From a virus (Duplodnaviria; Caudoviricetes), in IMG/VR virus record IMGVR_UViG_3300033075_001196, positions 1 to 64,000 of that record: 64,000 nucleotides of DNA; one strand, 5' to 3'. Positions 1 to 53,918 of this stretch are shown piece by piece. The position numbers and the translations under genes were made by a program. Each line of letters begins with the position of its first letter. Within the stretch, counting starts at the first letter, position 1. Under the pieces are notes generated by a model. The model made no database searches and was not told the origin of the DNA. It saw only the letters and a program-made list of their open reading frames with translations.

Positions 1-36
1 CAAAGTGTTATATGTTACCAATTACACCACGAGTCA
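1..36 (-). tRNA. tRNA-Gln(TTG), 5' half only (cut by window edge)
   Basis: Minus strand TGACTCG-TG-GTGTAATTGGTAACAT-ATAACA-CTTTG: acceptor, D arm and start of the anticodon loop. Confidence 0.7.
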
Positions 37-47
37 ATAAAAAATAA

Positions 48-123
48 GGGTGAACAAGGAGCAATGATCTCCCACCTCCTAGAATCACAATCTAGAGCTC
101 TGCCAATTAAGCTATGTACACCA
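48..123 (-). tRNA. tRNA-His(GTG)
   Basis: Cloverleaf with anticodon arm CTAGA-TTGTGAT-TCTAG; atypical T loop ATCATTG. Confidence 0.85.
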
Positions 124-128
124 TGTAA

Positions 129-290
129 TTACTTGTTTAAATATTTAAACATTTCTTCTTTAAATGATTCACCAAATTTTTGTTCAAATTCTTTAGTTAA
201 CTGCTCCTCATAGAATGGTGATTTCGGATTAGTAACAGCATCTATATCTTGTCTGAGATCTATATTCCATACTGCTTTTAATTTTTTCAT
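129..290 (-). CDS. 53-aa small protein resembling a segment of T4 gp23-type major capsid protein
   Basis: ATG at 290 to TAA at 129: MKKLKAVWNIDLRQDIDAVTNPKSPFYEEQLTKEFEQKFGESFKEEMFKYLNK; absent from the supplied ORF track. Confidence 0.55.
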   Translation of the reverse strand: MKKLKAVWNIDLRQDIDAVTNPKSPFYEEQLTKEFEQKFGESFKEEMFKYLNK

Positions 291-311
291 AATAAAGTCA
301 TTTGTTTAATT

Positions 312-343
312 AAAAAAGCCCTTCCGTCACTACTATTGGGAGG
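312..343 (-). terminator. Intrinsic terminator within tRNA cluster
   Basis: CCCTCCC...GGAAGGG hairpin followed by a T6 run on minus. Confidence 0.5.
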
Positions 344-410
344 GATTGTCACAACAACCTTCATTTCTTAAGTAAGTAGGAGATTTAAAAATCTCTGTTG
401 TGTTCAATTG

Positions 411-480
411 TCCGGGTGATTGTCACGACACAACATCTTCTATGTCCCAAACATAGTGCTTTGCTTTAAGCTACACCCAG
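411..480 (-). tRNA. tRNA-Pro(TGG)
   Basis: Acceptor CTGGGTG/CACCCGG; anticodon arm CTATG-TTTGGGA-CATAG; degenerate T arm. Confidence 0.8.
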
Positions 481-550
481 TTGGTCCAGGTTCCTAAACT
501 TACTCCGCATGGAGTATAAAATCTTCGCTGGAATGATTTTTCTTTATAAA

Positions 551-625
551 GGCGAGAATAGAAAGCCACGATCTCTCAACCTTCGGGTTTGGAAGCCGAC
601 GCTCTGCCAGTTGAGCTATATTCCC
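551..625 (-). tRNA. tRNA-Trp(CCA)
   Basis: D arm TAGCTCAACTGGCAGAGC; anticodon loop TTCCAAA; T loop ATCGTGG. Confidence 0.85.
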
Positions 626-631
626 ATTAAT

Positions 632-1237
632 TTATTTTTTTATAATTCCTAATTCAGATAATTCCTTACCAGTTAAAATTAGTAATTGATGTGGAAAATA
701 TTTCCATTTTGCTTTATCTTTTTCAGTTACATAACCTTTTGTTTCTATATAACAATCTTCTTTAATTAGATAAAAATCTGGAATATATTGCCTTATTTTA
801 TTATCCCAAAGATATGGAAATAATTTTGTATTTCTAATCCATGCAATTTCACATTTATCTAGATATTTGGCATATTCTAATTCATATGAACTATCAAGGA
901 ACACTTTACCGGCACTGGGACTAATATACCAGGATTTCTTCCCTCGTCCGGAACCTTGTCTATATCCTCCTGAATTAGGATTTTTTTTCATTGAATTAGA
1001 TATTTTAATGCGCCTATCAATTTCTTTAATATTAGTTTTATTCCATTCATTGGAATTCTTTCTATTTTGTATTGATAATGATATTTTACTTCTCATTTCG
1101 GATGCATTTTGACCATAAATTTCTTCGTATGACTTTCCCTTTCTAGAATTAGAATGTGGATTTTTTATACAATTATTTACATGTCCTCCGATTTTAAATC
1201 GTTCAAATTCAGCATTACAAAATTTACATTTATACAT
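632..1237 (-). CDS. Free-standing PD-(D/E)xK (TnsA-like) endonuclease with N-terminal zinc finger, probable homing endonuclease
   Basis: CKFC...H..NC finger; SSYELEY...YIPDF...YIETKG motif; sits between tRNA genes. Confidence 0.75.
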   Translation of the reverse strand: MYKCKFCNAEFERFKIGGHVNNCIKNPHSNSRKGKSYEEIYGQNASEMRSKISLSIQNRKNSNEWNKTNIKEIDRRIKISNSMKKNPNSGGYRQGSGRGKKSWYISPSAGKVFLDSSYELEYAKYLDKCEIAWIRNTKLFPYLWDNKIRQYIPDFYLIKEDCYIETKGYVTEKDKAKWKYFPHQLLILTGKELSELGIIKK

Positions 1238-1314
1238 TTATTCTATTTAAAAATAAATATAATTTAAATGTAAAAATCAAGAGTGTGTATCTAACATTTC
1301 ATATAAAATAAAAA

Positions 1315-1400
1315 GGAGGAAGAAGGAAGTGTCGATCTCCTACCCTTTCAGGCACATCCCGGCTTTCAAAGCCAGTTGCTAGGCCGCTAGCGCTTCTTCC
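1315..1400 (-). tRNA. tRNA-Ser(TGA), long variable arm
   Basis: Acceptor GGAAGAA/TTCTTCC; anticodon arm CTGGC-TTTGAAA-GCCGG; variable arm GCCTGAAAGGGT. Confidence 0.75.
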
Positions 1401-1442
1401 AATTATGGATATTCAACATTTCAAAGAACATTTATTTGATAG

Positions 1443-1515
1443 TGGAGATATCGGAGTACGATCCCGAATTATAAGTGTGCAAAACTTATGTGTTATCCAT
1501 TTATCACTATATCCC
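1443..1515 (-). tRNA. tRNA-Ala(TGC)
   Basis: GGGGATA/TATCTCC with G3:U70; anticodon loop TTTGCAC. Confidence 0.9.
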
Positions 1516-1529
1516 CAAATAAATTATTG

Positions 1530-1600
1530 TGGAGAAGGAGATAATCGAAATCTCATGCAAATGTTTTACAGACATGGCCTACTACCCTGGTATCTTCTCC
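1530..1600 (-). tRNA. tRNA-Tyr(GTA), compact atypical
   Basis: GGAGAAG/CTTCTCC-A; loop CTGTAAA; T arm GAGAT-TTCGATT-ATCTC; no long variable arm. Confidence 0.7.
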
Positions 1601-1615
1601 GAAATTATTAACAAT

Positions 1616-1650
1616 AAAAAAGCCTTAAAAAAACTTCTTCTTTAAGGCTT
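1616..1650 (-). terminator. Attenuator terminator upstream of tRNA operon
   Basis: AAGCCTTAAA/TTTAAGGCTT 10-bp stem plus T run, just upstream of tRNA-Tyr. Confidence 0.8.
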
Positions 1651-1678
1651 GATATATTTGAATTTTGTTTAAATTAAA

Positions 1679-1786
1679 TTACAACAACATATCAAGCCTG
1701 TTTCTTCCCGCAAATAACACACAAATCGGAAGATTATTCCAATACTGGTTATAAAGTGGGGACGATATTTGCTTACTATGTTTCAT
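1679..1786 (-). CDS. 35-aa putative leader peptide
   Basis: MKHSKQISSPLYNQYWNNLPICVLFAGRNRLDMLL; lies between promoter and terminator; last codons overlap the antiterminator strand. Confidence 0.7.
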   Translation of the reverse strand: MKHSKQISSPLYNQYWNNLPICVLFAGRNRLDMLL

Positions 1787-1816
1787 TTTAATAATACAAT
1801 ATTTCAATTTCTTATC

Positions 1817-1850
1817 ATAAAGGTAAGAAAAGATTTTCAATTGACCAAAT
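1817..1850 (-). promoter_or_regulatory. Bacteroidota-type (-33/-7) promoter driving tRNA cluster 1
   Basis: TTTGGTCAATTGAAAATCTTTTCTTACCTTTAT; related copies at ~12048, 13381, 14424, 15842, 17775, 31247, 34293, 37549, 40342, 43590, 53599, 59600 (minus) and ~17895, 20188 (plus). Confidence 0.8.
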
Positions 1851-1902
1851 TTATTTTAAGTTTTTTAATAAAAATATTTATTATATAATTATTATCGGGA
1901 TT

Positions 1903-1910
1903 ATATTTAT
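1903..1910 (+). promoter_or_regulatory. Putative late promoter motif ATATTTAT
   Basis: Same octamer just upstream of genes at 6353 (plus) and 1253, 9592, 9905, 10890, 40883, 42443, 48876, 51640 (minus). Confidence 0.55.
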
Positions 1911-1921
1911 AATAAAAATAA

Positions 1922-2245
1922 ATGAAAGAATTTCTTAAATGGTCTGATATTCGTATAGGAACATGGAATTCTAATCCATTTACATGGGATGATGTTGCAC
2001 TAATTGAAGAAATTGAAGTAGTTGGTGGAGGTAATTTAGATAGCTCTTTGGCTTATGTTAATAAATTACCCAAGAAAAGAAAACTACAATTAATAAAAAT
2101 TATATTAACATTACAAAATAAGGAATTTATTGAGACAAAATATAAAAATAGTAAACATATTAAGATCAATATTGACGATATTAAGCTGCTTTTAGAAAAT
2201 AAACCCAAGGTAACTGCCATCGTTAAACTTAAACCCAAAGACTAG
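1922..2245 (+). CDS. Hypothetical late protein
   Basis: 107-aa ORF after late motif, first of a structural operon. Confidence 0.7.
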   Translation: MKEFLKWSDIRIGTWNSNPFTWDDVALIEEIEVVGGGNLDSSLAYVNKLPKKRKLQLIKIILTLQNKEFIETKYKNSKHIKINIDDIKLLLENKPKVTAIVKLKPKD

Positions 2246-2247
2246 TT

Positions 2248-3810
2248 GTGCCGAATCAATATGATTTAACTAATGAATATGTATCATCAACATACGGGCG
2301 AGTTCTACAAATTGTAAGTTCTAGTTTATATGATGGATTTGGTAATCCTGTATTTATACATTCTGGTAGCAGTTTGCATATTCGGGAAGAAGTTACTATT
2401 ACACAGCAGACATCTAGTTATAACTATTCTTTATTACAAGGAGCCCAATCTGGATCATCTGTTGAAATATACTATAACGGTCAATTATTAAATTTAACAT
2501 CCTATTCTAATATAGGACCAGTATATACACTAGATTCAAATTTTGAAGTATATGTTGGTGATGTTTTAACATTTATATATTATGTAAATAATACCTCTGG
2601 ATCTGGAGGAGGATCAAGCGCATCATCCAGCTATGCAGATTACGCCGCTACAGCTTCATATTTATTAGGATCAATTTCAAGTGCATCATATTCTACTTAT
2701 GCAGAAACTGCTAGCTATGTAATTAGTAGCTCACATTCAAATAACTCAGATCAAAGTATTAGTTCTAGTTATGCACCAGCTCAGCCAACTAGTAGTTATT
2801 CATTAATGTCTTTATCTGCATCTTGGGCACCTGGTGGAAGTTCAATAAGCAGTAGCTATTCAAATAATAGTTCAACTAGTGATAATTCAATATCATCATC
2901 ACACTCAATAATCTCCGATACAGCTAGTTATTTTAATGGGAATGTAATAACTTCAAGTTATAGTGTCAGTTCTAGTTATTCAAATAGAACTTTATCAGCA
3001 TCATATGCACCAATGCCAGACACATCAAGTTATTCAATTAATTCTTTAAGTTCATCTTGGGCTCCTATACAAATTAGTAGTAGTTATTCAGTGTCTTCTT
3101 CATATACTGTTTCTTCAAGTTATGCACCGGCACAACCAACTAGTAGTTATTCAATAAATTCATTGACTGCAAGTTATGCAAAAACAGTTGATGTACAATC
3201 AACGGCTAGTTATTCTATTAGTTCAAGTCAAACTGATTATGCAAATACTGCGTCATATTATAATGGTAGTGTTGTTAGTTCTAGTTATTCAAGTACTTCA
3301 AGTTATTCAGATAGAACCATTTCAGCTAGTTATGCTCCATCCCAACCAACTAGTAGTTATTCAATAAATTCAAGTACATCAAGTTATAATATCAGCTCTA
3401 GCCATGCGCTTCTAGCTGATTCCGCATCATCTGTAATTAGTTCCAGTTATAGTACAACATCATCATATTCAGTGTTTAATCCATATATTGTAACTATTGG
3501 ATCAAGAATAAGCACTGAAGACACATATATAACTGCAGGATCAAAGGGATATAAACACATTGGATATCCATGTACTATAGTTAAAGCAAGGACTATAACA
3601 GGTGGAACTGGCAGTATTGATATTAATATAAAGAGGAATGGAAGTTTATTAGGAAATATTAATATAACAAGCAATACAGGATCGTATGATACTGCACTAG
3701 TTGGGTGGACTACTCAATTAGATACAGATGATTTAATAGAATTTTATGTTAGTGGTTCATCAGTGTATATAACTGATGTCACTATATTTATAGATATAAA
3801 GGCAAGGTAA
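2248..3810 (+). CDS. Ser-rich repeat virion fibre/decoration protein
   Basis: Many SSSYS/SASYA/TASY repeats between globular N- and C-terminal domains. Confidence 0.7.
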   Translation: MPNQYDLTNEYVSSTYGRVLQIVSSSLYDGFGNPVFIHSGSSLHIREEVTITQQTSSYNYSLLQGAQSGSSVEIYYNGQLLNLTSYSNIGPVYTLDSNFEVYVGDVLTFIYYVNNTSGSGGGSSASSSYADYAATASYLLGSISSASYSTYAETASYVISSSHSNNSDQSISSSYAPAQPTSSYSLMSLSASWAPGGSSISSSYSNNSSTSDNSISSSHSIISDTASYFNGNVITSSYSVSSSYSNRTLSASYAPMPDTSSYSINSLSSSWAPIQISSSYSVSSSYTVSSSYAPAQPTSSYSINSLTASYAKTVDVQSTASYSISSSQTDYANTASYYNGSVVSSSYSSTSSYSDRTISASYAPSQPTSSYSINSSTSSYNISSSHALLADSASSVISSSYSTTSSYSVFNPYIVTIGSRISTEDTYITAGSKGYKHIGYPCTIVKARTITGGTGSIDINIKRNGSLLGNINITSNTGSYDTALVGWTTQLDTDDLIEFYVSGSSVYITDVTIFIDIKAR

Positions 3811-3813
3811 TTT

Positions 3814-6174
3814 ATGAAAGTAGCTGTAGAGCACACATTTACAGGAGCAACAGGATCTCTAAGCGGATCATATGATGCAACAAAAACAATGTTGGGTACA
3901 TTAATAAAACAATTTAGTGGATCATTATCTACTGATAAGTATGTTAGTGTTAATCCACCAGTTTTAATGAACATGACTGAAATTGCGGGATTTTCTTTCG
4001 TTTCACCACACGTTTATAAATGGTCGTCAAATATTTATTGGATATTTGTGTCAGCGAATGCCGCCGCCGCAGTAACACGAAATATAGGATTATTTGAGTA
4101 TAATTATTCAGCAAATACTATTACTTGGAAAGGATATATAACTTTATCGGGTACTACAATTGCGGGTGTAAAAATTATTAGAGGATTTCGATCATATGTA
4201 TACAAACATACAACAGGTTATGTATCAACTGGTGGATCAACATCTACGGTTGTGACAGGATCTGGTACACAATTTGTAACAGAACGAATTGCCACTGGCG
4301 CAAGAATTGGGTTTGGGTCAGCTGATCCAAATAGCATCTCTACTTGGTATGATATATCTAGTATTGCTAGCGACACAGAATTAACACTAAGTGGTGCTGT
4401 TTCGGTACCAGTTAGTAGTTCATATGTTATAGAAGAAATTCGTTTGGCAATTAATTGTACCAATGCGACATTATACAATGGTGGGGTGCATCTTATCAAA
4501 GGATTAAATTATGGAACATTCGCGCTTGGTGGCACTGTAATTTCGGAAGCAACAACCGTTGATAATGTTAGAGCATCATATCTATTACGGGATATTGCAC
4601 CCGCAACTTGTACTATACCAGTTGCAACGCCAGCAGTTGTTACTAAAGTAGGGCATGGATATGTTGCAGGAGATTTAGTATCATTTTCAACCACTGGTAC
4701 ATTAACAGGTCCAACAGTGAATACAACATTTTATGTAAGTGCAACGGGGTTAACGGCTGACACATTTCAATTCTCAGCAACATTAGGTGGTGCATCTGTA
4801 GCATGCACTGTATCGTCTGGAACTCATACACTATATTCCGGGTTATTAAACAATGGAATGGGTATTACGGCTGATGATTTTATTAGTAATACTCAGCAGT
4901 ATGCGTATGTATTGAATAGTGATAATGCTACAACAACTCGTATTCATAAATTTAATTTGAGGGAGGCGTTGACTGTAGCCGGGGGAATATCTTATAGTGC
5001 TTGGACGCTTAAAACTCTTGGGCTGACGACAGTTGGAACCGTCCAACAACAAGGTAATGGGCGAGTATTTAGCGTCTCCCACGGAGCAGCATCAGGAATT
5101 AAGAGCTTATATTTTGTCACAGCAACTAGAGTATATCGATGTGCTATTTCAGATATTACTGCGGGTAGTTCAAATTGGCTGTCGGATTCTATGATAGAAA
5201 ACCCGCCCGGATCTGTTACCACTAATTTGGGTACCAATGCATTTTTACAAGTAGATTATAGTGCAATGCTGGATAGACTGTTAATATCATGTACATTGGC
5301 TGGTAGACACGGCACGTATATCGCGCAATATGATCCATCTAATCCACAATTTGAAAAACTCTTCGGGCAGATTACTAATAGAACTAAACTTACCACATCA
5401 GCCGTCGGAAGTGTTGATGCGATATTTTCACCAGCTGCATTAACTATGTGGACGGAAGACGGGATATTATTTGCTGCTCCGAATATTTTAACTTCTGGAT
5501 TAAATTGGTTAGCAGTATTACCAATTGGTGCAGATGCATATTATGCCGCTAGTACTAACCAAAAGATAATTACCCCTAAATTACCAACTACAAATGCGAC
5601 TAAATTATATCGGGCATATGTGCATACAAATCATTATACTGGTGATTTCAATCTAGGATATACTCCAGAACCAATTAGGTTGTTTTATAGAACATCTGGG
5701 ATTGATGATAATTCAGGAGCATGGACTGAGACAATATCTGGAGATTTAACTGCAATTACACCAAGCACATACATACAATTCATGGTGTATTTAGATATAT
5801 TGGGAGAATTTTGCGTTCCTAGGAGAGTATATTCAATTTGCTGTGTATATGAAGATGGATCGCAGGATTCTCACTATGAACCATCGTTGACATATTCATC
5901 CGCTCAAAATAGGCAATTTACGTGGAGACAAATTACTGCTTGGGGATCTAGTATTCCAAATCTTAGATTACAATTATTTAATGTAGCAAATGGCTTTTCA
6001 GTACTGGATGATGATATAACTTCATCTTCTAGTGGTACATGGGAATATTCAACAGATGCAGTAACTTGGTTATCGTGGAATAGTGCCCAGGATGTAATTG
6101 GGAATTATATTAGATACACTGCGACAACTTTACCTAATAATATCACCGTTAGAGCATTAATCACACAGGCATAA
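3814..6174 (+). CDS. Large beta-rich virion structural/tail-associated protein
   Basis: 786 aa, T/S/G-rich; VTGSGTQF and HGYVAGDLVSF fibre-type modules. Confidence 0.7.
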   Translation: MKVAVEHTFTGATGSLSGSYDATKTMLGTLIKQFSGSLSTDKYVSVNPPVLMNMTEIAGFSFVSPHVYKWSSNIYWIFVSANAAAAVTRNIGLFEYNYSANTITWKGYITLSGTTIAGVKIIRGFRSYVYKHTTGYVSTGGSTSTVVTGSGTQFVTERIATGARIGFGSADPNSISTWYDISSIASDTELTLSGAVSVPVSSSYVIEEIRLAINCTNATLYNGGVHLIKGLNYGTFALGGTVISEATTVDNVRASYLLRDIAPATCTIPVATPAVVTKVGHGYVAGDLVSFSTTGTLTGPTVNTTFYVSATGLTADTFQFSATLGGASVACTVSSGTHTLYSGLLNNGMGITADDFISNTQQYAYVLNSDNATTTRIHKFNLREALTVAGGISYSAWTLKTLGLTTVGTVQQQGNGRVFSVSHGAASGIKSLYFVTATRVYRCAISDITAGSSNWLSDSMIENPPGSVTTNLGTNAFLQVDYSAMLDRLLISCTLAGRHGTYIAQYDPSNPQFEKLFGQITNRTKLTTSAVGSVDAIFSPAALTMWTEDGILFAAPNILTSGLNWLAVLPIGADAYYAASTNQKIITPKLPTTNATKLYRAYVHTNHYTGDFNLGYTPEPIRLFYRTSGIDDNSGAWTETISGDLTAITPSTYIQFMVYLDILGEFCVPRRVYSICCVYEDGSQDSHYEPSLTYSSAQNRQFTWRQITAWGSSIPNLRLQLFNVANGFSVLDDDITSSSSGTWEYSTDAVTWLSWNSAQDVIGNYIRYTATTLPNNITVRALITQA

Positions 6175-13348: not shown

Positions 13349-13894
13349 AAGTAAATTTATAAATTAAATAATATAACACAATAAAGGTAAGTTATATTTT
13401 TCAATTAACCAAATTTCTAATTCGAAAATTTTAATTGAGTAGTTATGTTCACCTTAATTGCTGGCTTACCATTAATAAATTGGGTTGGAAATGGAACATC
13501 TTCCATGTCATCACCAATTACAATGTGTGTACCATCAGACAAGGTAGCAGCGGTATAAGTGCTAGGTAGTAATCCTGCAGATGCTGCTTTAGCTCTCTTA
13601 ATTCTACCAGGTTCTAATTGAAGCGCCATCTTTTTAGCTGCTTCAAAATTGCTAATTCTTTGCCCCTTGGACAAAAAATTAATGTCCTTTGTATTTCGTT
13701 TATGCATTCTGATCTTAGTTTTGACTGAATCCTGGCATACCACATGATTCCATTAATGGATTATGTCCCTCAATAGGCTCCGCCATACATTGAATTGCCA
13801 ATAATTTTTTCCCATCCTTTTCGAAGGCTTGGCGCAATCTTTCTAATGCTTCTTGAATTTCTTGTTGATTTGACATACACTTGATTTTTAAAAG

Positions 13895-30519: not shown

Positions 30520-31710
30520 TTTATATTATTTTTAATTAATTTCTAATAATTTATCTGTATCATATTTTAAAATTTATGTGGTATAGGGTCAAGTGCCCAA
30601 TCAAGATATTCGTTGAATGCTTCTTCTAAGTCGTATTTGTGTGGATTGAATAAACCTAATGCTATAGCTTCTAATGCTTTATGGTAAGGCAACATTTTTT
30701 GCATTCCATTTTCACAATTAGTAAACACCAATTGCGGAATTAATATATCTGTCCCATCAATTGAACATGGTTCTTTTGTAAATGTCAAATGAACATTATC
30801 TGTAGGCTTTGGTTTTGGTGGAAGATTCATACGAATATACATTGTGCTAGCATCTATATCCAATAACTTAAAATGCATTTTATTTAATCTAAGCTTGGAC
30901 TTATAGACCTTATAAATCAATATGCTTAAAAGCACAATATTTATAAACAATTCAATAATTAATATTGTTGAATTCATATTACATTATTTCTTTTTTAAGC
31001 CACTTAATAGTAACATGGTTTGGAGTACCCACTGCTCTTTCAAATAATAATTCAATTTCAGTGCCTGCCTCTGGGGGTATTCCATTTCCAGTTACTTGAA
31101 ACCATTTAAAATTTGGGTGTTCTCCACCAGCTAGTGGATGTATTTCTACCAACGAGGTAAACGATCTATTTAATGCAGCCATTGTTGCTGGATCAAGCAA
31201 CATATGTTTTTGTATTCTAAAAAACGCCATATTTACTATTTATACTATAAAGATATATTATATATTTCAATTAACCAAATTTATTCTTAAATATCAGAAC
31301 CAATCCATAGCTTGATTGTATTTGTTTCCTGTTCCGCTTCTGATAGTTTATTATGCATTTTGATATGTACCCCATTCAATCTTTCAAAATGGACAACACC
31401 TGATCGATGTTGTATTAATACATTGCCTCTACAATTGACTCTACCACAATGATTGCACTGTTTATTCTTTACACCACAATTTTCATGTTGACATGGATTA
31501 CCATTTAAAATATTCTGGGTTTCTTCAATTATCTTTGATTTTTTCATTTCTTCATGAAATAATTTATTGTGAATGGCAACCAACCAAATATAATAGTCCA
31601 TTTTGCAGCAGTAGTCATACTAGTCTTCATTATATGATTGTTCCATTCACACATTGCCAACATGATGTATCCAATGAATATGTAAATTGAAATTCCAATG
31701 ATTATTCCCG

Positions 31711-36979: not shown

Positions 36980-37081
36980 AAGACACTTAGTTTCACAAGC
37001 TGGAATTGAACCAGCAACATTCTGCTTTGAAGGCGGACGATCTAACCAATTGATCTATTGTAATAATTTTGTAAGTGTCTT
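36980..37081 (-). ncRNA. Y-like RNA enclosing a tRNA-like cloverleaf (TCA loop)
   Basis: AAGACACTTA/TAAGTGTCTT stem; GATC D arm; CTTCAAA loop; GCTGG-TTCAATT-CCAGC. Confidence 0.8.
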
Positions 37082-37528: not shown

Positions 37529-37582
37529 ATTTTATCTAATTTCTTAATATAAAGGTAAAAAAAGATTTTCAATTAACCAAAT

Positions 37583-37939: not shown

Positions 37940-37991
37940 ATAAGTTTAAAAATGTGACCCGGAGTCAATATCCTTCGGCCGGGTCACTTAA

Positions 37992-43575: not shown

Positions 43576-44021
43576 ATCTAATTAACAACATAAAGATATG
43601 ATCTATTTTACAACTAAACAAATATTTCTTTAAATATTATTTATATATATGCACAAATTCTGATAAATCATTGAATTTCAATAAATTATTCATATCTTGA
43701 TATCATATCAACTGCCTGCTGTTCGAAAGGATGATGGCCTGTCATTATATTAAATTGCGGATCTTGAATAATTCTTTTTTCTGTTATTGGGGTGATTTTA
43801 AAATCAATAAGAAGTTTATCAATCATAAAATCAATATGCCTCAATACAGACCCGCCATCTCTGCGTTGAATTGATGCTACAATTGTTTCAAACGAAACTA
43901 ATTTATTTTTATAATGATGTATATAATTTCTAATAAACTCTAAATCCTGTTGTATAAACTCAGCCGGAGGCCTTGAGCATTTACTGTTAAGCCATGTTAG
44001 TACGTCATTTCTATTCATATA

Positions 44022-53370: not shown

Positions 53371-53918
53371 ACTATCATTAATATTTTTTTATGCACAATT
53401 GCTGCCCATTCATATAATTCATTTTTGGCCAAAACTTCTCTGAATGCGATTAACTCTTCCTTGCAAGTTGCTAATGCTAAAAATTCATAGAATTCTTCAT
53501 CACAAGAAATTAATGCTCCAGGATCATCCAATAACATTTGGTATGAGTCTTCAAGATCCTCAATACTAAATCCTTCTTCAAAAAAATCATTATCAATCAT
53601 AAAGGTAAGTTATAGTTTTCAATTAACCAAATTTATTCAACCAAATGATCAACAAATTTTATCATTTGACCGTGGGTTTCGGATTTGTCAGTCCAATCGC
53701 GTATATTAATCATATTGTTCATTTCATATACTAAAACCTTTTTCCACATTTTTTCTATAAGTAAAGCATCTCCCTTAACTTCAACAACTATTCCTGTTTT
53801 TTCCTTTAACAATGCAGCCAATGCTTGAGTAAATACTAGAGCTGAATATAATCTTTCGTCCGTAGTGTCCACATCTTTGTCTGGTCTACAATAATTTTTA
53901 CCTAGTGTTTTGTTCATA

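Follow-up and report, generated by a model that had tools for sequence, protein, structure and literature searches.

A candidate leader-peptide attenuator upstream of a transfer RNA gene array in an uncultured wastewater phage

Layout of the leader and its promoter

The DNA examined here, called the window throughout, comprises the first 64 kb of the IMG/VR virus record IMGVR_UViG_3300033075_001196. This viral record is 124,387 bp long, has about 31% G+C and is estimated to be 69% complete. Near-identical DNA is present in metagenomes from 11 studies of wastewater, activated sludge and freshwater; the source is an uncultured wastewater phage, and its host is probably a member of the Bacteroidetes. 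Our subject is a self-contained and sharply bounded element of about 240 nucleotides (nt) on the minus strand, flanked on one side by a plus-strand gene with its start at 1922 and on the other by an array of minus-strand transfer RNA (tRNA) genes that reaches the contig end. An earlier note on this DNA had described a promoter, an open reading frame (ORF) of 35 codons and an intrinsic terminator here, and had interpreted them as a leader-peptide attenuator of the tRNA operon. The positions and sequence statements for all three parts hold, and the features of the leader are as follows.

1849-1817, minus strand: promoter, TTTGGTCAATTGAAA-N9-TACCTTTAT, recognized from recurrence of the motif in the genome
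1816-1787, minus strand: predicted 5' untranslated region, A/T-rich and without a Shine-Dalgarno sequence
1786-1679, minus strand: leader ORF, from ATG at 1786 to TAA at 1681-1679, 35 codons plus TAA
1782-1771, minus strand: segment 1 (codons 2-6), the candidate anti-antiterminator, base-paired to segment 2 when the naked RNA is folded at minimum energy
1765-1703, minus strand: internal stem-loops between segments 1 and 2, which hold most of the rare G+C-rich codons
1699-1686, minus strand: segment 2, the 5' arm of the predicted antiterminator (codons 30-34), ending 5 nt short of the stop codon
1658-1645, minus strand: segment 3, the 3' arm of the predicted antiterminator, of which 1650-1645 doubles as the base of the terminator 5' arm
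1650-1612, minus strand: intrinsic terminator, consisting of a hairpin of 13 bp (1650-1620) followed by a U tract (1619-1612)
1600-1529, minus strand: tRNA-Tyr(GTA)-like gene with a weak D arm, beginning about 12 nt past the U tract

For comparison we used 10 contigs from different samples that carry the same locus (strain contigs), which were obtained through exact-protein look-ups of a neighboring gene for a protein of 107 amino acids (aa). These contigs group into 4 leader haplotypes.

The pattern TTTGGTCAATTGAAA-N9-TACCTTTAT has 4 exact matches in the window, compared to 0 expected. The 124-kb genome holds 6 copies of the motif, which are confined to the minus strand and lie 19-42 nt upstream of an ATG in every case. 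Written as TTTGGTYAATTGAAA, 9-10 nt and TAYCTTTAT, the copies lie at 1817-1849, 13381-13413, 31249-31279, 37549-37581 and 53599-53631 of the window and at 90653-90683 of the genome. They probably represent one temporal class of phage promoters that is read by a Bacteroidetes-type sigma factor. The copy at 1849-1817 resembles what we take to be the Bacteroidetes promoter type, with TTTG at -33 and TAnnTTTG at -7. Gene starts in this phage are A-rich upstream and carry no Shine-Dalgarno signal, which is consistent with this assignment. Furthermore, the leader ATG lies 30 nt downstream of the motif, a spacing like that of the genes behind the other five copies. Transcription would start downstream of the promoter at 1849-1817. 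One substitution among the strain contigs falls in this promoter and gives it the sequence that most copies of the motif have.

The motif also bears on how the tRNA genes are expressed. The minus strand has no second copy of it in positions 1-2100 of the window, and no further promoter-like motif occurs from 1849 to the contig end. In strain contig L082, the leader promoter is the sole such motif in 10 kb that holds 17 tRNA genes. Because this single promoter lies upstream of the terminator, the main tRNA array appears to depend on transcription passing the terminator at 1650-1620.

Most strain contigs (8 of 10) carry an 8-nt insertion, ATTATATA, between 1797 and 1796. A 53-aa frame that would initiate at a TTG codon (1840) was considered as a gene and rejected, since the insertion disrupts it in most strains; the ORF, if there is one, therefore begins at the ATG at 1786. 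A back-translated search with the 53-aa frame gave no match. Likewise, two plus-strand ORFs of 29 and 39 aa that overlie the leader region are unsupported.

Terminator and antiterminator pairing

The hairpin at 1650-1620, which is followed by TTTTTATT, is the sole terminator-like site in positions 1-3000. Near the end of the leader ORF, AGGCTTGATAT (1699-1689) exactly complements ATATCAAGCCT (1655-1645), and this pairing occupies 6 nt of the terminator 5' arm. The match had been reported in the earlier note and is exact over its 11 nt. Perfect complements of at least 11 nt that overlap the terminator 5' arm arose in only 2 of 5,000 dinucleotide shuffles of the upstream 150 nt (P ~0.0004). Among 16 compact terminator-like hairpins in the genome, only that of the leader has a complement longer than 9 nt, and most have complements of 4-6 nt. 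The terminator-overlapping complement is not a product of chance.

Folding calculations describe how the two structures would compete. The entire leader is more stably folded than its shuffles (z = -2.57). The terminator hairpin has a predicted energy of -13.5 kcal/mol, compared to -17.9 kcal/mol for the 14-bp antiterminator hairpin. The naked full-length leader is predicted to combine the pairing of segments 1 and 2 (1782-1771 with 1697-1686; 11 pairs with one mismatch and one G-U in the minimum-energy folds) with an intact terminator, at -45.0 kcal/mol. When the pairing of segments 2 and 3 is forced, the energy is -42.0 kcal/mol and what remains of the terminator is an A/U/G-U helix that uses up the U tract. 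During chain growth, the 1:2 pairing is optimal at first, 2:3 takes over when segment 3 has emerged (-35.8 versus -31.5 kcal/mol), and 1:2 plus 3:4 is again the best fold after segment 4 has emerged.

The effect of a translating ribosome was modeled by masking a 28-nt footprint at each codon and reading out the mean pairing probability of the terminator base. This value is 0.96 for the naked RNA, falls to 0.07-0.18 when the ribosomal P site is on codons 1-7 and to 0.11-0.19 when it is on codons 12-13, and is about 0.95 for codons 27-35 including the stop codon. With the P site on codons 1-7, the antiterminator is predicted to form with a probability of about 0.9. The combined pattern (terminator in the naked RNA, antiterminator with a ribosome at the start and terminator with a ribosome at the stop) was observed in 0 of 700 shuffles. 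Both the mask and the fold results are equilibrium calculations, and the actual outcome would depend on kinetics and on ribosome queues. With this qualification, the architecture that the earlier note had likened to the trp and his attenuators is supported by the complement, by the flip between folds in the mask model and by the start context and length of the ORF and its intactness in all 4 haplotypes, as described below.

Taken as a terminator/antiterminator switch, the element is well supported in silico, and its modeled layout is that of a classical leader-peptide attenuator. Our preferred interpretation is that it is a ribosome-mediated transcription attenuator of the 1:2, 2:3, 3:4 type that heads the main tRNA array, and we judge the chances of this being correct to be about evenly balanced. 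According to this interpretation, transcripts would begin at the promoter at 1849-1817, carry the 35-codon ORF and adopt one of two alternative folds. In the terminating fold, segment 1 would pair with segment 2 and segment 3 with segment 4. In the read-through fold, segment 2 would pair with segment 3, which would remove the G+C-rich base of the terminator stem and leave the U tract partly paired. A ribosome that has reached the last codons or the stop codon while segments 3 and 4 are being made would cover segment 2, which would allow the terminator to form and keep the tRNA genes silent. If the ribosome instead lags or stalls early in the ORF, it would hold segment 1 and leave segment 2 free to form the antiterminator, and the tRNA genes would then be transcribed. 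Slow decoding would in this way lead to more phage tRNA. Such a mechanism presupposes translation of the leader ORF, coupling of transcription to translation in the presumed host and a signal that slows the ribosome on the leader, all three of which we infer.

Translation of the leader and competing explanations

Several features of the ORF point to translation. An ATG-initiated ORF of at least 35 codons occurs in 3.7% of shuffled leaders (P 0.037). The context of the leader ATG scores 3.6, which is near the median of real starts in this phage (43rd percentile) and is equaled by only 2.5-3% of other or intergenic ATGs.

The strain contigs add a small amount of sequence variation. Within 1610-1921, the only substitutions are those at 1685, 1686, 1699, 1700, 1706 and 1709, in addition to the one in the promoter. 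All 4 haplotypes retain the 35 codons and both folds, with similar energy gaps, and 4 of the 6 substitutions in the ORF fall at synonymous third positions (P ~0.05). The substitution A1699G retains its base pair as a G-U. In strain L071, the substitutions at 1709 and 1706, both synonymous, move a run of G residues whose pairing with a run of C residues is retained. The 12-nt core of segment 2 (1698-1687) is invariant in all strains, with variable sites abutting it on both sides; segment 3 is invariant in all strain contigs, and the terminator is identical in the 9 of 9 contigs that reach it. This pattern is consistent with the peptide frame and the pairing both being constrained, albeit in a small sample.

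The six leader substitutions are confined to 25 nt (1685-1709; P ~1e-4 if they are independent). This clustering could reflect a recombination tract, a site of tuning or relaxed constraint.

A search of 1.8 billion proteins with the 35-aa peptide yielded no credible homolog. The only matches were long repetitive proteins, which we rejected as low-complexity hits.

Other observations weigh against a ribosome-mediated attenuator. The codon usage of the leader ORF is like that of spurious ORFs and scores lower than 99.8% of real-gene windows do, and the ORF was passed over by gene callers in all strain contigs. The leader also lacks the feature by which classical attenuators are known, namely consecutive codons for a single amino acid. 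The duplex of segments 1 and 2 (-11.0 kcal/mol) is within the range expected by chance (P 0.18), and in the equilibrium model ribosomes stalled at codons 8-11 and 14-35 still give the terminator. To our knowledge, tight coupling of transcription and translation has not been established for the presumed host group. The strain comparison spans a divergence of only about 1%, and its conservation tests are consequently low in power. Finally, no relative beyond strain level was found to carry the element in searches through the neighboring 786-aa and 107-aa proteins, by sequence patterns and by blastn. The 786-aa neighbor led to one viral contig (85% identity) that has no tRNA genes and no DNA like positions 1-2300 of the window, and none of 50 scanned loci with distant relatives of the 107-aa protein has adjacent tRNA genes.

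The search with the 107-aa neighbor yielded 18 viral and 36 metagenome loci with best-segment identities of 33-45% over most of the protein, together with three further short matches of higher identity. Exact-pattern scans of viral contigs for a 25-mer from the tRNA-Tyr-like gene and for the promoter motif gave no match. A blastn search of 50,697 phage records returned only a generic tRNA-Trp match and one match of 116 nt. One metatranscriptome (X17) yielded a contig that spans 1404-1577, which includes tRNA-Ala and part of the tRNA-Tyr-like gene, and none that covers the leader. This finding weighs neither way, as transcript ends and levels are invisible in assembled contigs, stable tRNAs accumulate and DNA carry-over is possible.

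A possible, though doubtful, alternative is that the locus is an ordinary short transcription unit whose terminator is leaky. Its promoter would drive a short RNA, possibly untranslated, or a gene for a 35-aa peptide, and the tRNAs would be made by constitutive partial read-through. The hairpin of segments 2 and 3 would then act in RNA processing or stability (as a site for RNase III, for instance, or as a structure that protects the 3' end after RNase P cutting) or would simply be a coincidence. This explanation accommodates the non-coding appearance of the codon usage, the chance-level pairing of segments 1 and 2 and the strain-level conservation of the leader, which is no higher than that of its flanks. 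Moreover, a second tRNA gene of this phage, tRNA-Arg (37939), also directly follows a hairpin and T run that end an upstream gene, and the placement of a tRNA gene behind a terminator is thus not peculiar to the leader. A leaky terminator does not account for the complement that would destroy it, which has no counterpart at any other terminator and is rarely matched in shuffles, as noted above (P ~0.0004). The start context, the length of the ORF and the position of its stop codon just past segment 2 would all have to be coincidences as well. In addition, another tRNA cluster of the phage (see below) shows that a promoter can be put directly before tRNA genes.

If the element is a ribosome-mediated attenuator, there is the further matter of what it would sense. 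It may serve as a translation-speed sensor of host decoding capacity: host tRNAs that are cleaved by defense nucleases, depleted or a poor match to the phage codons would cause ribosomes to lag in a mini-gene rich in rare codons, and the array of 11-17 genes would be turned on. We place this proposal on the unlikely side. The earlier note made a more specific claim, namely that the leader deliberately samples nearly all codons, such that cleavage or loss of almost any host tRNA would switch on the phage tRNAs. Its counts are numerically right. The leader uses 28 distinct codons. By this statistic, which was picked after the sequence had been seen, it ranks within the highest 0.5% of 35-codon stretches from real genes and the highest 1% of spurious ones. 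It encodes 18 amino acids (Glu and Thr are absent), which is in the top 1-5% of comparison stretches, and 13 of the 35 codons are rare in the phage genes (fewer than 10 per 1,000).

The rare G+C-rich codons that the earlier note had singled out (TCG, CCG, GCG and AGG) are indeed present. However, these codons, like TCC, fall in predicted stems: TCG-TCC-CCA pairs with GCG-GGA, CCG lies in the central hairpin and AGG lies in segment 2. Therefore, RNA structure accounts for them as well as deliberate codon sampling does.

The array is the other point of comparison for a leader that samples codons. Across strains it serves 17 amino acids and has no tRNAs for Asp, Glu or Thr, and the leader likewise has no Glu or Thr codons. 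We also considered whether the leader codons mirror the array tRNAs. The match is unusual relative to real genes (P 0.011 for residues and P 0.10 for codons), but it is not significant relative to spurious ORFs: the array tRNAs serve 33 of 34 leader residues (P 0.22) and read 26 of its 34 codons (P 0.39). Furthermore, the equilibrium model yields the antiterminator only from stalls at codons 1-7 and 12-13, and the codon usage resembles that of spurious ORFs. Sensing of stalling at almost any codon is therefore not upheld, and we regard deliberate sampling of all codons as unlikely.

Quite improbable, in our judgment, is a conditional terminator that is independent of translation, in which an RNA-binding protein (from phage or host), a small RNA, a tRNA or the speed of the polymerase decides the outcome and the ORF is incidental. 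It would be in keeping with the terminator/antiterminator pair being the statistically strongest feature, with the weaker evidence for translation (each P 0.03-0.06) and with the excess structure of the leader. It is disfavored by the lack of any match to a riboswitch, T-box or protein-binding leader family at E values up to 10, by the synonymous bias of the substitutions and by the placement of segment 2 in the last 6 codons, the stop codon between segments 2 and 3 and segment 1 on codons 2-6, an arrangement required by a switch that a ribosome operates and of no use to one operated by a ligand or protein.

The ribosome-mediated attenuator can also be compared with systems that are already known. 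The attenuators of amino acid operons (trpL, hisL, leuL, thrL and ilvL; modeled in PMC1183508) likewise have a promoter-proximal short ORF and an intrinsic terminator. In both, the antiterminator overlaps the terminator 5' arm and is masked, through its 5' arm in segment 2, when a ribosome has come to the end of the ORF, and the upstream segment inside the ORF that can sequester the antiterminator has a candidate counterpart in segment 1 of the phage leader. The phage leader differs in having no run of regulatory codons, in the length (23 codons) and structured nature of the spacer that separates segment 1 from segment 2, and in the genes it would control, which are phage tRNA genes rather than genes for biosynthetic enzymes. 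Searches with Rfam identified no cis-regulatory family at gathering thresholds. In positions 1-2300, at E values up to 10, the only cis-regulatory match was a weak one to His_leader (RF00514; 19.7 bits, E = 3.3, below the threshold of 49). Weak matches to microRNA, small nucleolar RNA and other families that make no biological sense here (mir-3047, mir-7918, DdR17 and RsaJ) are far below threshold and were dismissed as artifacts of hairpins or composition.

The nearest functional analogs of a ribosome-speed sensor are the attenuators with upstream ORFs of Bacillus subtilis vmlR (PMC9226507) and mycobacterial whiB7 (PMC10274678). In these systems, a slowed ribosome in a short upstream ORF similarly shifts the choice between terminator and antiterminator, and they respond to the state of translation, not to a single metabolite. 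They differ in that they control cellular resistance or stress genes, and some require drug-bound ribosomes or specific codons (alanine). There is no sequence similarity between them and the phage leader. T-box riboswitches share the logic by which a shortage of charged tRNA switches a terminator to an antiterminator. However, they bind uncharged tRNA directly through Stem I and the T-box sequence, need no ORF and control synthetases and transporters. No T-box match was found in the leader at E values up to 10.

Phage tRNAs are known to counter tRNA-cleaving host defenses, and their arrays are now regarded as tools against such defenses and codon mismatch (PMC10264068, PMC11555353), which would suit a sensor of tRNA loss. 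The arrays described in these reports are likewise large, interspersed with homing endonucleases and variable between strains; the reports concern tRNA function and not conditional transcription. Our literature searches revealed no attenuator described before phage tRNA genes and no upstream-ORF attenuator of the vmlR and whiB7 kind there or in a phage.

If our preferred interpretation is correct, the phage would gauge decoding performance and make tRNAs on demand, and leader-peptide attenuation would reach beyond amino acid and resistance genes to include the translation machinery itself, and would operate in viruses as well. With its compact form, the element could also be used as a part that senses translation stress in hosts of the Bacteroidetes type. 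Its small size and clear bounds make these proposals directly testable.

The tRNA array and other tRNA loci

The gene that follows the terminator at 1600-1529 had been described in the earlier note as tRNA-Tyr. It has a perfect 7-bp acceptor stem, a T loop of TTCGATT and a GTA anticodon, all of which were identified only with the relaxed ARAGORN setting (-ps80). It is missed by ARAGORN with default settings and by the Rfam tRNA model (RF00005; threshold 29 bits), with a 13.7-bit match to the transfer-messenger RNA clan as the only Rfam signal. We therefore describe it as a tRNA-like gene of uncertain function. Of the 9 strain contigs that extend this far, 8 retain the gene. The remainder of the array in the window is as follows.

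1516-1443, minus strand: tRNA-Ala(TGC), 43.5 bits, a bona fide tRNA
1400-1315, minus strand: tRNA-Ser(TGA), class II, found with relaxed ARAGORN and present in strain contigs too
1237-632, minus strand: endonuclease gene (PHROG 15137) inside the array
625-553, minus strand: tRNA-Trp
480-411, minus strand: tRNA-Pro(GGG)
121-49, minus strand: tRNA-His, where the contig ends

Default ARAGORN missed all three of the genes for tRNA-Pro (GGG), tRNA-Ser (TGA) and tRNA-Tyr (GTA) (411-480, 1315-1400 and 1529-1600), and two of these were also missed by Rfam. In the tRNAs of this phage, the D or T arm is unusual.

Strain contigs with 10-kb flanks reveal the extent of the array, with 11-17 tRNA genes distributed over 5-9 kb downstream of the leader. 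These genes are interspersed with differing homing endonuclease genes and other minus-strand genes in an order that depends on the strain, and both content and order vary between strains whose flanks are about 99% identical. For example, the endonuclease gene of the window (632-1237) is absent from other strains or swapped for other endonucleases (DUF559 and others; contigs L070-L083). In L074, a DUF559 gene directly follows the terminator and replaces both tRNA-Tyr and tRNA-Ala.

Additional tRNA genes are found elsewhere in the window. A cluster of tRNA-Thr, tRNA-Met and tRNA-Asp genes at 43.5 kb has a promoter-like sequence, TTTG-N20-TATCTTTA (43591-43622), that ends 16 nt upstream of tRNA-Thr, and it has no leader. 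A 200-nt leader is thus not required merely for tRNA expression. The gene for tRNA-Arg(GCG) is preceded by a G+C-rich hairpin and T run (GTGACCCGG ... CCGGGTCAC ATTTTT; 37940-37990) that end 9 nt before it, with no obvious alternative pairing. A tRNA with the anticodon TCA (36990-37064; called "SeC" by ARAGORN; 56 bits with the Rfam tRNA model) adjoins tRNA-Gln behind a gene for a 144-aa protein. It may be a suppressor of TGA codons, yet long ORFs of the phage read normally in translation table 11.

Two proteins encoded in the window also differ between strains that are otherwise about 99% identical. The 786-aa protein (3814-6174) is highly variable, as is the end (3550-3810) of a 520-aa protein with Ser/Tyr repeats in L071, and neither has a Pfam or PHROG match. 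Such variability is the pattern expected of receptor-binding or tail-fiber proteins.

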